From the IMG/VR virus record IMGVR_UViG_2681813201_000018, positions 1-31,647 of that record: a stretch of DNA of 31,647 nucleotides; one strand, 5' to 3'. Below, piece after piece: positions 18,001-21,000 of the stretch (position 1 is the stretch's first letter; each line of letters starts with the position of its first letter). The DNA is from a virus (Duplodnaviria > Heunggongvirae > Uroviricota > Caudoviricetes). The position numbers were made by a program.

Positions 18001-21000
18001 ACTGGCATGGTGAATCCCCCTGTGCGGAGGGGCAATCAGCGAGTAGGTATATGGGATAATCGCGGATTCAGGTGCTGGTACTGAATTCACCGGGAGGCAC
18101 CCGGCACCATGCAAGAAAAAGAATGTGCATGCAAACATGCCCCTCTCCGGAGGGGCATTTTTTATGGGTAAAAAATGCCCGAATGGGTTCGGGCAATAGC
18201 ATGAGATACTGATATTGTTGTGTTGTTATCGTGTGGATTTTAACCAGGGTTTATCAGGCTGCGCAACTGCGTGGCCTTTTTTCATTTCTTGGGCTGTAGT
18301 CCCCGTGTGTCATTCAGGCTTCCGGACTACAGCCCACTCCATATCTGATTTAATACACTATCCCGGCCGGGAGGAATAATGACATTTAAACATTATGATG
18401 TTGTCAGGGCGGCGTCGCCGTCAGACCTTGCTGATGCACTTGCGCAAAAAATTCGTGAAGGATGGCAACCATATGGTGGGCCGTTTTCTTCGTATACGGA
18501 TGATGGCGCAGCACTTATTCAGGCGATTGTCGCAGAAGGTGATGTGAGCACACCTGTTGTGGTGAAGCCGACAGGTGGAGAAGGTGCAGTAATCAGCGCC
18601 ACCAGCGACCCCGGGTATTACTTTGTTGTGGTTCTGGCAGGGCAGTCAAACGGCATGTCGTATGGTGAAGGTCTTCCGCTGCCGGAGACATATGACCGTC
18701 CGGACCCGCGCATTAAGCAGCTGGCGCGTCGCAGTACGGTGACACCGGGCGGTGTCGCCTGTAAATATAACGACATCATTCCGGCGGACCATTGTCTGCA
18801 TGATGTGCAGGACATGAGCCGTCTTAACCATCCGAAAGCGGACCTGTCAAAGGGGCAGTACGGAACCGTGGGGCAGGGGCTGCATATCGCCAAAAAACTG
18901 CTGCCGTTTATACCGGCGAATGCGGGCATTCTGCTGGTTCCGTGCTGTCGTGGTGGTTCAGCGTTCACCACCGGAGCTGATGGCACATACAGTGACGCGA
19001 GTGGTGCCTCGGAGAATTCAACCCGCTGGGGTGTGGACAAGCCGCTGTATAAGGACCTTATCGGTCGAACAAAAGCAGCACTGAAGAAGAATCCGAAAAA
19101 TGTGCTGTTTGCCGTGGTGTGGATGCAGGGGGAATTTGATTTTGGCGGTACGCCGGTAAATCACGCCGCACAGTTTGGTGCGCTGGTTGATAAATTCCGT
19201 GCAGACCTGGCGGATATGGCAGGCCAGTGCGTCGGTGGCTCTGCTGGCGGTGTTCCCTGGATATGCGGGGACACGACGTATTTCTGGAAGCAGAAGAACG
19301 AATCCACGTACCAGACGGTGTACGGCAGCTATAAAAACAAAACGGAAAAGAATATCCATTTCGTACCGTTCATGACCGATGAGAACGGGGTGAATGTGCC
19401 GACGAACAAACCGGAAGAAGACCCGGACATTCCGGGTATCGGATATTACGGTTCGAAATGGCGTGACAGCTCAGCCACCTGGACGTCACAGGACAGGGCG
19501 AGCCATTTCAGCGCCTGGGCACGCCGTGGGATTATTTCCGACCGTCTGGCAACGGCGATTTTGCGCCATGCGGGAAGAGTGGCGCTAAACGCGGGGGCAT
19601 CATCGACAGTATCAGAGGTGCGCCCGTCATCGCCTTCCGGTGCAGAAGCCACAGGCGTCACAACACTGCTCTCTTACCTTGCCAGCGAGTCAGAGGGAAG
19701 CCTGAAAGTACAGGGATGGTCAGCCAGTGGCGGCAGGGCAGAAGTGGTCAGCGATGCGGAGGGAACCGGAGGTAAGGCAGTGAAGCTGACCAAGGAAGCC
19801 GGTAAAAGCAGCTGGGTGCTGGAGTACGCCGCGGGCAACGGTGCGGCTCTGTTACAGAAAGGGGGGCAGATTCGCTGCCGCTTTAAGGTTTCGGGAGCGC
19901 TGGCTGCGAACCAGTATGTTATGGCGTTTTACTGGCCGGTATCTTCACTGCCACAGGGCGTTGCCCTGACCGGAGACGGGGGGAATAACCTGCTGGCAGC
20001 GTTCTACATCCAGACAGATGCAAAAGACCTGAATGTGATGTACCACAATGCGAAAGTGGCGACAAACAACCTGAAACTGGGAACCTTTGGCGCATTTGAT
20101 AACGAATGGCATACGCTGGCTTTCCGCTTTGCCGGGAATAACAGCCTGCAGGTGGCGCCGGTTATTGATGGTCAGGATGGCACACCGTTCACGCTGACGC
20201 AGTCACCGGTCAGTGCCTTTGCGGCGGATAAACTGCATGTGACAGACATTACCAGGAATGCGACTTACCCGGTGCTGATTGACAGCATTGCGGTGGAAGT
20301 GAACAGCACAGACACTGCGGCATGATAAAAAAAACCGCCAGCGACAGGAATGGACGCTGGCGGTGGTAATACCTATGGAGAAAAAATAAAGGAACGATAC
20401 TTTCGTGCTCTGGTTTTTTAAATGAAAACAGTTCTTATTGTCAACAATAACGGAAAGAAATTATGACATTTCTGAACCAGTTAATGCTGTACTTCTGTAC
20501 GGTGGTCTGTGTGCTGTATCTCCTTTCGGGTGGGTACAGGGCCATGCGTGACTTCTGGCGCAGACAGATTGACAAAAGGGCCGCTGAGAAAATCAGCGCC
20601 AGTCAGTCAGCCGGAAGCAAACCCGAAGAGCCGCTCATTTAGCGGCAACTTTCTTAATCACATCTTTCGACGAGAAAATCCCATGTCAGAAATTACATCC
20701 TTGGTCACTGCTGAAGCAGTGAAGGAAGTCCTGCGCTCTGAAGAAGTCCGGAGCGCACTGAAACAGAAACTTCGCCATAACCTGGAAGCGCGTCTTGATG
20801 CAGAAGTGGATGCCATTCTGGATGAACTGCTGGGCGCACCGGCAGCTCCGGAGCCGGAAGGCATCGCGGGTGAGGGGAGTGCTTCAGACAGCGGTGACCC
20901 CACACCGGACAGCGACATGATGATGTAAGCATGCGTCAGGGACCATCGGTGTGTGCCGGTGGTCTTTTTTATTGTTGTGAGCTTCCGGATTGCGGGAGGC

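Follow-up and report, generated by a model that had tools for sequence, protein, structure and literature searches.

The IMG/VR virus record IMGVR_UViG_2681813201_000018 (Caudoviricetes; positions 1 to 31,647, a stretch of 31,647 nucleotides hereafter called the window) contains the left-hand portion of a long-tailed lambdoid prophage, which spans the genes from the integrase through tail U. Its gene at 18379..20325 on the + strand is predicted to encode NanS-p, an already known sialate O-acetylesterase that is ordinary for prophages of this kind. As a whole explanation, we regard it as highly probable that the product is a full-length and catalytically competent prophage NanS-p, which is expressed late, is released by lysis, and feeds sialic acid to lysogens. 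We see directly how the protein is built, that its catalytic machinery is present, and that its gene lies in the late region; the later steps of the mechanism we infer from gene order and published close homologues.

Domain architecture and identity of the protein

The open reading frame (ORF), as read from the window, is intact from its ATG to its stop codon, encodes 648 residues, and is preceded by a Shine-Dalgarno sequence (GGAGG, 18370-18374, + strand) 4 nt upstream of the ATG. An earlier, sequence-only reading had proposed a sialate O-acetylesterase of this length at exactly these coordinates, and translation bore out both. The domain search that it had suggested as a test returned an esterase domain: Pfam matched SASA at residues 84-279 (E 1.1e-10, above the curated cut-off). 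The DUF1737-like segment described at the N-terminus was also recovered, as Pfam DUF1737 (PF08410) at residues 3-53 (18385..18537, + strand; E 1.5e-11, 44.4 bits against a cut-off of 24), in a variant referred to below as type A.

The SGNH/SASA esterase domain, recognised by its similarity to NanS (3PT5), covers residues 81-400 (18619..19578, + strand). When PDB sequences were searched, residues 74-396 matched 3pt5_A (NanS/YjhS) with 55.7% identity over 318 aligned positions (E 2.5e-115). NanS uses Ser19 and His301 as catalytic residues and Gln18 and a Gly as oxyanion hole, and the usual Asp is absent (PMC9063846); the block motifs of NanS-p enzymes are the Ser of GQSN and the His of R[AS]SH (PMC10462455). 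The VVLAGQSNGMSYGE motif spans residues 84-97 of the window protein, and the conserved catalytic-site residues are Gln89 and Ser90 within GQSN and His376 within RASH. The Ser90 codon lies at 18646-18648 and the His376 codon at 19504-19506, both on the + strand. The SASA match and the conservation of the Ser and His of NanS upheld the assignment as a sialate O-acetylesterase.

Residues 401-425 (19579..19653, + strand) form an interdomain linker that is Ser/Ala-rich by composition and contains a PSSPS motif; these 25 residues alone are simple in composition. The linker leads into a lectin-like jelly-roll carbohydrate-binding domain, DUF6645 (residues 426-648; 19654..20322, + strand), assigned from PDB 6yp6_A. 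The PDB sequence search matched residues 426-643 to this entry, named 'NanS-p', with 2 differences in 218 aligned residues (~99% identity; E 1.9e-139), and Pfam matched DUF6645 at residues 492-610 (E 6.7e-74, above the curated cut-off). The aromatics of the proposed sugar site are kept: Y513, Y518, Y543, and F614 correspond to Y510, Y515, Y540, and F611 of vb_24B_21. On this part of the protein the sequence-only reading, which had described a Gly/Ala-rich C-terminal region, has to be corrected. The C-terminus is a folded lectin-like domain and not a Gly/Ala-rich tail, because it is represented by the 6YP6 crystal structure and its Gly plus Ala content is only 24%, against 22% in the whole protein.

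The Pfam and PDB matches are far beyond chance. NanS-p proteins are defined by their three-domain architecture, with four aromatics in the proposed sugar site (PMC10462455), and all defining features that can be checked in the sequence are present here: the SASA/SGNH core, DUF1737, the lectin-like C-terminus, and the prophage position. The whole protein also matches phrog_143 in PHROGs. No hydrophobic N-terminus or membrane segment was found in it, the maximum over Kyte-Doolittle 19-residue windows being 1.42. A search with the N-terminal 80 residues returned almost exclusively short Escherichia coli fragments and no new domain architectures. NCBIfam contains no model for the family of the 648-residue protein; an acetylornithine transaminase match there (18.8 bits against a cut-off of 735), which also appeared weakly in the PDB searches, was rejected as chance.

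Probable late expression and proposed role of the enzyme

The placement of the gene in a late operon, as originally proposed, agrees with what we found: nanS-p lies between a Q-like antiterminator gene and the lysis cassette, with intrinsic terminators upstream and no adjacent sigma-70-like promoter. The Q-like late antiterminator gene (16075..16629, + strand) matches Pfam DUF1133 (E 1.4e-108), weakly Phage_antitermQ (26.5 bits), and phrog_753, 'anti-termination protein Q-like' (E 5.5e-82). A candidate PR'-like late promoter (TTGACT-18-TATATT, 16626..16655, + strand; 10 of 12 consensus matches in our scan) directly follows the Q stop codon, at a position that corresponds to pR' as annotated in 933W and VT1-Sakai. 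Between this promoter-like site and nanS-p, the scan for terminators identified four terminator-like hairpins on the + strand. No sigma-70-like promoter was detected in 16900-18378 by a consensus scan, which is simple and can miss real promoters, and the equally simple terminator scan found no + strand terminator directly after the nanS-p stop codon. By the promoter/terminator criterion, nanS-p does not look like an autonomous moron, though its GC content (55.7%) differs from that of the whole window (50.0%). Because four terminator-like hairpins precede the gene and no sigma-70-like site adjoins it, transcription is most likely carried out by antiterminated late RNA polymerase. This fits the induction of homologues, as nanS-p mRNA of Stx2a-phage alleles rises by 1-2.4 log under mitomycin C (PMC10462455).

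In the mechanism that we propose, NanS-p would be a prophage paralogue of chromosomal NanS that combines DUF1737, an SGNH esterase, and a lectin-like module. Ser90 would act as the nucleophile, Gln89 and a Gly would form the oxyanion hole, and His376 would serve as the base. The gene would be transcribed mainly after induction, by antiterminated RNA polymerase that passes the intervening terminators. Having no signal peptide, the protein would exit the cell at phage lysis, the likely route given that it has no hydrophobic N-terminus or membrane segment. Outside the cell, it would deacetylate sialic acids, both free and mucin-bound, at the 9-O position (and at 7/8-O), and the resulting N-acetylneuraminic acid (Neu5Ac) would be taken up and catabolised by sibling lysogens. 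Targeting to glycans is the probable task of the C-terminal module, and DUF1737 may tether the enzyme to capsids.

Recombinant NanS-p homologues cleave 5-N-acetyl-9-O-acetylneuraminic acid (Neu5,9Ac2) as well as mono-, di-, and tri-O-acetylated mucin sialic acids (reviewed in PMC8065619, PMC5923452, and PMC8319020). The extent of growth on Neu5,9Ac2 follows the number of nanS-p copies (PMC8065619, PMC5923452) and is lost when all nanS-p genes are deleted (PMC5923452). The gene had been labelled a host-benefiting metabolic moron from the sequence alone; this published growth role of homologues sustains the host benefit, while a 'pure' moron label is called into question by a preprint on the phi24B capsid (10.64898/2026.04.10.717836). 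Two points weigh against the picture of a late-expressed, lysis-released enzyme given above. The promoter and terminator calls rest on simple consensus scans, and release of a free enzyme by lysis may not be the full account, the phi24B homologue being bound to the virion and later processed.

Distribution and closest known relatives

The exact protein is present in RefSeq as WP_045893715.1, and its 90% identity cluster has 6410 members. The nanS-p gene matches 342 phage records, mainly of Shiga toxin (Stx)-converting phages, and of 5426 complete E. coli genomes, 1906 contain related genes, at up to 15 places each. RefSeq names WP_045893715.1 only 'DUF6645 domain-containing protein', and full-length NanS-p in complete E. 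coli genomes is named by the Prokaryotic Genome Annotation Pipeline (PGAP) only 'DUF6645' or 'DUF1737 domain-containing protein'. As the enzymology has been published and two crystal structures exist, such generic naming amounts to a minor gap in annotation.

Among known systems, H0032 of the Stx1 phage VT1-Sakai (Sp15) and the prophage copy in E. coli O157:H7 strain Z1813 are likewise 648 residues long and share 98.5% and 99.1% identity, respectively, with the window protein. The DUF1737 variant, the downstream genes, and the head/terminase type are common to all three. VT1-Sakai carries stx1AB and a 933W-type Q, whereas the window has no stx genes and combines a DUF1133-type Q with an ORF6N antirepressor/C4 RNA module.

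Esterase activity of a NanS-p was first demonstrated for L0105 (z1466) of 933W, which shares 92% overall identity with the window protein in a mosaic pattern: DUF1737 is 62% identical, the first linker 20% (unrelated), the esterase 97%, the second linker 100%, and the C-terminal domain 99%. L0105 and the phi24B protein gp84 (vb_24B_21; PDB 6YP6) have a SISSP motif and Tyr42, where the window protein has VSTP and Asp42. Both 933W and phi24B belong to the short-tailed Traversviruses and have a T=9 head, in contrast to the window prophage with its ClpP-protease/major capsid protein (ClpP-MCP) fusion head and lambda-type tail genes, yet nanS-p occupies the same position with respect to the lysis genes. 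Chromosomal NanS (YjhS, 3PT5) shares the SGNH type II core, the GQSN Ser, and the His with the window protein, but it is a single domain of ~326 residues encoded in the nanCMS operon, without DUF1737 or a C-terminal carbohydrate-binding domain (PMC10017367).

A further relative of 679-680 residues was observed at 9707-11749 of IMG/VR locus L070 (also in L071, L072, and L074-L076). Its esterase is ~82% and its C-terminal lectin domain ~80-83% identical to those of the window protein; its N-terminal ~110 residues are unrelated to DUF1737 and have no family match. In L070, the gene comes immediately after a set of baseplate, tail-fibre, and DNA-invertase genes in a myovirus prophage of Mu/P2-like type.

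Alternative explanations

The alternative that survives best is that NanS-p is primarily a virion component. DUF1737 hexamers in the hexons of the phage's own capsid would display the esterase and lectin domains, for example for mucus holding or passage, and the benefit to lysogens would be secondary. We treat this as a tentative alternative, rather unlikely to be correct. Its precedent is a 2026 bioRxiv preprint on phi24B, in which cryo-electron microscopy and proteomics identified gp84 (NanS-p) as an abundant virion protein (10.64898/2026.04.10.717836). There, gp84 decorates the capsid via DUF1737, a hexamer of which plugs the flat central hexon of each T=9 face, with Tyr42 as anchor and with binding restricted to that hexon; the esterase and lectin domains are gradually removed by cleavage, an SSP motif being the proposed autoprocessing site (10.64898/2026.04.10.717836). 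That nanS-p belongs to the late structural/lysis transcript, and that the consensus scan detected no separate promoter for it, would suit such a role.

The precedent is, however, a preprint on a different phage, and it carries over to the window only in part. Position 42 of the window DUF1737 is an Asp, though there is a Tyr at 39, and the anchor loop has a different sequence. No 933W terminase or portal was found in the window by tblastn, and the head genes in the window and those of phi24B and 933W are unrelated. The features of a phi24B-type capsid decorator are only partly present: DUF1737 is there, but Tyr42 and a Traversvirus capsid (gp69-like MCP) are not. An AlphaFold2 model of residues 1-80 gave a predicted local distance difference test score of only 53.9, from a low-diversity alignment of 30 sequences. 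A published study of Sp5 morphogenesis mentions the homologue only as an esterase and provides no evidence that virions need or contain it.

We compared DUF1737 variants with head types in 80 IMG/VR loci and, for type A, in complete phage genomes of INPHARED, with the IMG/VR counts referring to loci that have head genes in range. Four head types were distinguished: the window's ClpP-MCP fusion (H1), true lambda-type A/B/C head genes (H2), an HK97-like terminase with a protease-capsid fusion (H3), and the 933W/Traversvirus head (H4). The DUF1737 variants A, B, and C differ mainly in the loop at residues 34-46, while residues 1-33 are almost invariant (loci L004-L083); the variable part is the loop that anchors gp84 in the phi24B capsid, a coincidence that favors display on the virion. 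Type A, the variant of the window, was found with H1 in 11/11 IMG/VR loci, the window's own locus counted, and in all 11 INPHARED phages that have an H1 head and nanS-p. Type B, the 933W variant, occurred with H4 in 3/3 IMG/VR loci. Nearly identical esterase and C-terminal domains were found with all four head types; lying between DUF1737 and the head genes, they are nearly unchanged across the three head types other than that of the window, a further point in favor of virion display.

Other parts of the comparison point the opposite way. Type C, often with an identical DUF1737 sequence, occurred in IMG/VR with H2 (n = 11), H3 (n = 4), and a divergent H1 (n = 1), and in INPHARED type A was also present in two Traversvirus recombinants (AP005153 and KJ909655). 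In view of these exceptions, the association may be simple linkage. Strong but imperfect, it is suggestive as far as types A and B go, could equally well reflect linkage, and breaks down for type C. We do not claim co-adaptation of DUF1737 to the head, given the three head types of type C and the two recombinants with type A. Virion display of NanS-p in the window prophage itself is possible but, on this evidence, not what we expect. Likewise rather unlikely is the broader proposition that prophages with the ClpP-MCP head (VT1-Sakai type) display NanS-p on their capsids by means of a type A loop co-adapted to that head, in which case the many nanS-p copies of enterohaemorrhagic E. coli (EHEC) would be structural genes for mucus interaction and not metabolic morons.

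A second alternative places the real substrate on the bacterial surface, as an O-acetylated O-antigen or capsule polysaccharide, so that the enzyme would aid adsorption or release by modifying the receptor. The possibility is raised in a review (PMC8065619); a carbohydrate-binding module with possible virion attachment would suit a receptor-modifying enzyme, and the related esterase with another N-terminus adjoins tail-fibre genes in the Mu/P2-like prophage of L070. Yet the reported substrates of recombinant NanS-p enzymes are Neu5,9Ac2 and mucin sialic acids, growth on Neu5,9Ac2 disappears with the nanS-p genes, as described above, and we found no evidence for lipopolysaccharide deacetylation. 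We judge this alternative improbable. Finally, a decaying, non-functional nanS-p relic in a cryptic prophage, as might be suspected from the many NanS-p database entries that are fragments and from the broken, chimeric tRNA upstream, is ruled out for practical purposes by the intact full-length ORF with three domains, preserved catalytic and sugar-site residues, and 98-99% identity to alleles of inducible phages; most of the fragments are labelled 'partial' in their source names and may reflect incomplete contigs.

Genomic context of the nanS-p gene

The order of genes around the predicted NanS-p gene, Q - (stx site) - nanS-p - DUF1378 - DUF826 - S - R - Rz, is that of 933W and VT1-Sakai, with the exception of the stx genes and the Q type. 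Immediately upstream of nanS-p, a 430-bp stretch at 17943..18375 (+ strand) is homologous to the spacer between stxB2 and L0105 (nanS-p) of 933W (71.5% identity, blastn). No stx gene is present in the window prophage, so that this 933W-type spacer represents a familiar stx site without stx. Within the spacer, Rfam identified the small RNA (sRNA) STnc100 (17976-18169, + strand) and, back to back with it, the anti-GcvB sRNA AgvB (18170-18231, - strand), each with a terminator; the terminator scan placed intrinsic terminators on the + strand at 18137-18158 and 18256-18277.

Further upstream, blastn against 933W revealed a chimeric tRNA remnant composed of a 5' ileZ part and a 3' argO part (17823..17900, + strand), followed by a terminator at 17914-17931. 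Over 17823-17940, the 5' part, including the pT promoter, is 92% identical to 933W ileZ, and the 3' part, including the terminator, is 90% identical to argO; the fusion implies that argN and the intervening tRNA halves were deleted. ARAGORN called no tRNA at the remnant, and Rfam reported only a partial tRNA (17830-17889, model positions 7-64). In the near-identical stretch of Z1813 (99.9% over 1779 bases), PGAP annotates a tRNA-Met.

Between the Q-like gene and the tRNA remnant, the candidate promoter is followed by an isrK-like short leader RNA (16662..16738, + strand; Rfam isrK, 74.4 bits) with a tR'-like intrinsic terminator (16717-16734, terminator scan), by C4-type antisense RNA elements (16649-16850; Rfam C4 and c4-a1b1), and by an ORF6N antirepressor-like gene (17109..17666, + strand; Pfam ORF6N, PHROG anti-repressor). 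The whole module at 16626-17666 resembles P1 immI or Gifsy-1 isrK: it comprises the promoter-like site, c4-a1b1 targets and isrK (16649-16738), the C4 antisense RNA (16766-16850), and sRNA-Xcc1 (16988-17071), then the antirepressor gene. Since the module directly follows the Q-like gene, it would place an antisense-RNA-controlled antirepressor at the head of the late transcript.

Downstream of nanS-p, Pfam identified small DUF1378 (20463-20642) and DUF826 (20683-20928) genes, both on the + strand; DUF1378 followed by DUF826 is the usual downstream arrangement, and the order is the same in VT1-Sakai and Z1813. The lysis cassette (21006..23118) consists of a P21-type holin (21006-21221), a lysozyme (21819-22352), and Rz (22651-23118), all on the + strand and supported by Pfam and PHROGs. 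A 186-residue ORF with a GTG start (21222-21782, + strand) is inserted behind the stop codon of the holin and ahead of the endolysin gene; it has no Pfam match and matches only the C-terminal part (positions 117-296) of phrog_1085, a family of unknown function. Related prophages differ in whether they have this ORF; VT1-Sakai and Z1813, for example, lack it. The cassette is followed by a terminase, a lambda-family portal, the ClpP-protease/major-capsid fusion (27636-29807, + strand; Pfam CLP_protease and Phage_capsid_4, PHROGs), a cement/decoration protein (29895-30221, + strand; Pfam Phage_cement_2, PHROGs), and tail genes Z and U.

At the left end of the prophage, the lambda-type integrase gene lies at 734-1810 on the - strand. 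Downstream of a DUF2511 gene, the insertion adjoins the SraC/RyeA-SdsR/RyeB sRNA pair (462-606). The early region contains the RalA antitoxin sRNA (2168-2346), RecE/RecT, DicF (7094-7145, - strand), and a hok/sok module (sok, 14305-14476).

Implications

NanS-p lets EHEC and related E. coli use the O-acetylated sialic acids of gut mucus. Since copy number affects growth on O-acetylated sialic acids, every intact copy contributes to a fitness trait that is already known, and the copy in the window fits this picture without adding anything new to it. Should display on the capsid hold true for all types of carrier phage, a widely cited 'metabolic moron' would instead be a structural phage protein.

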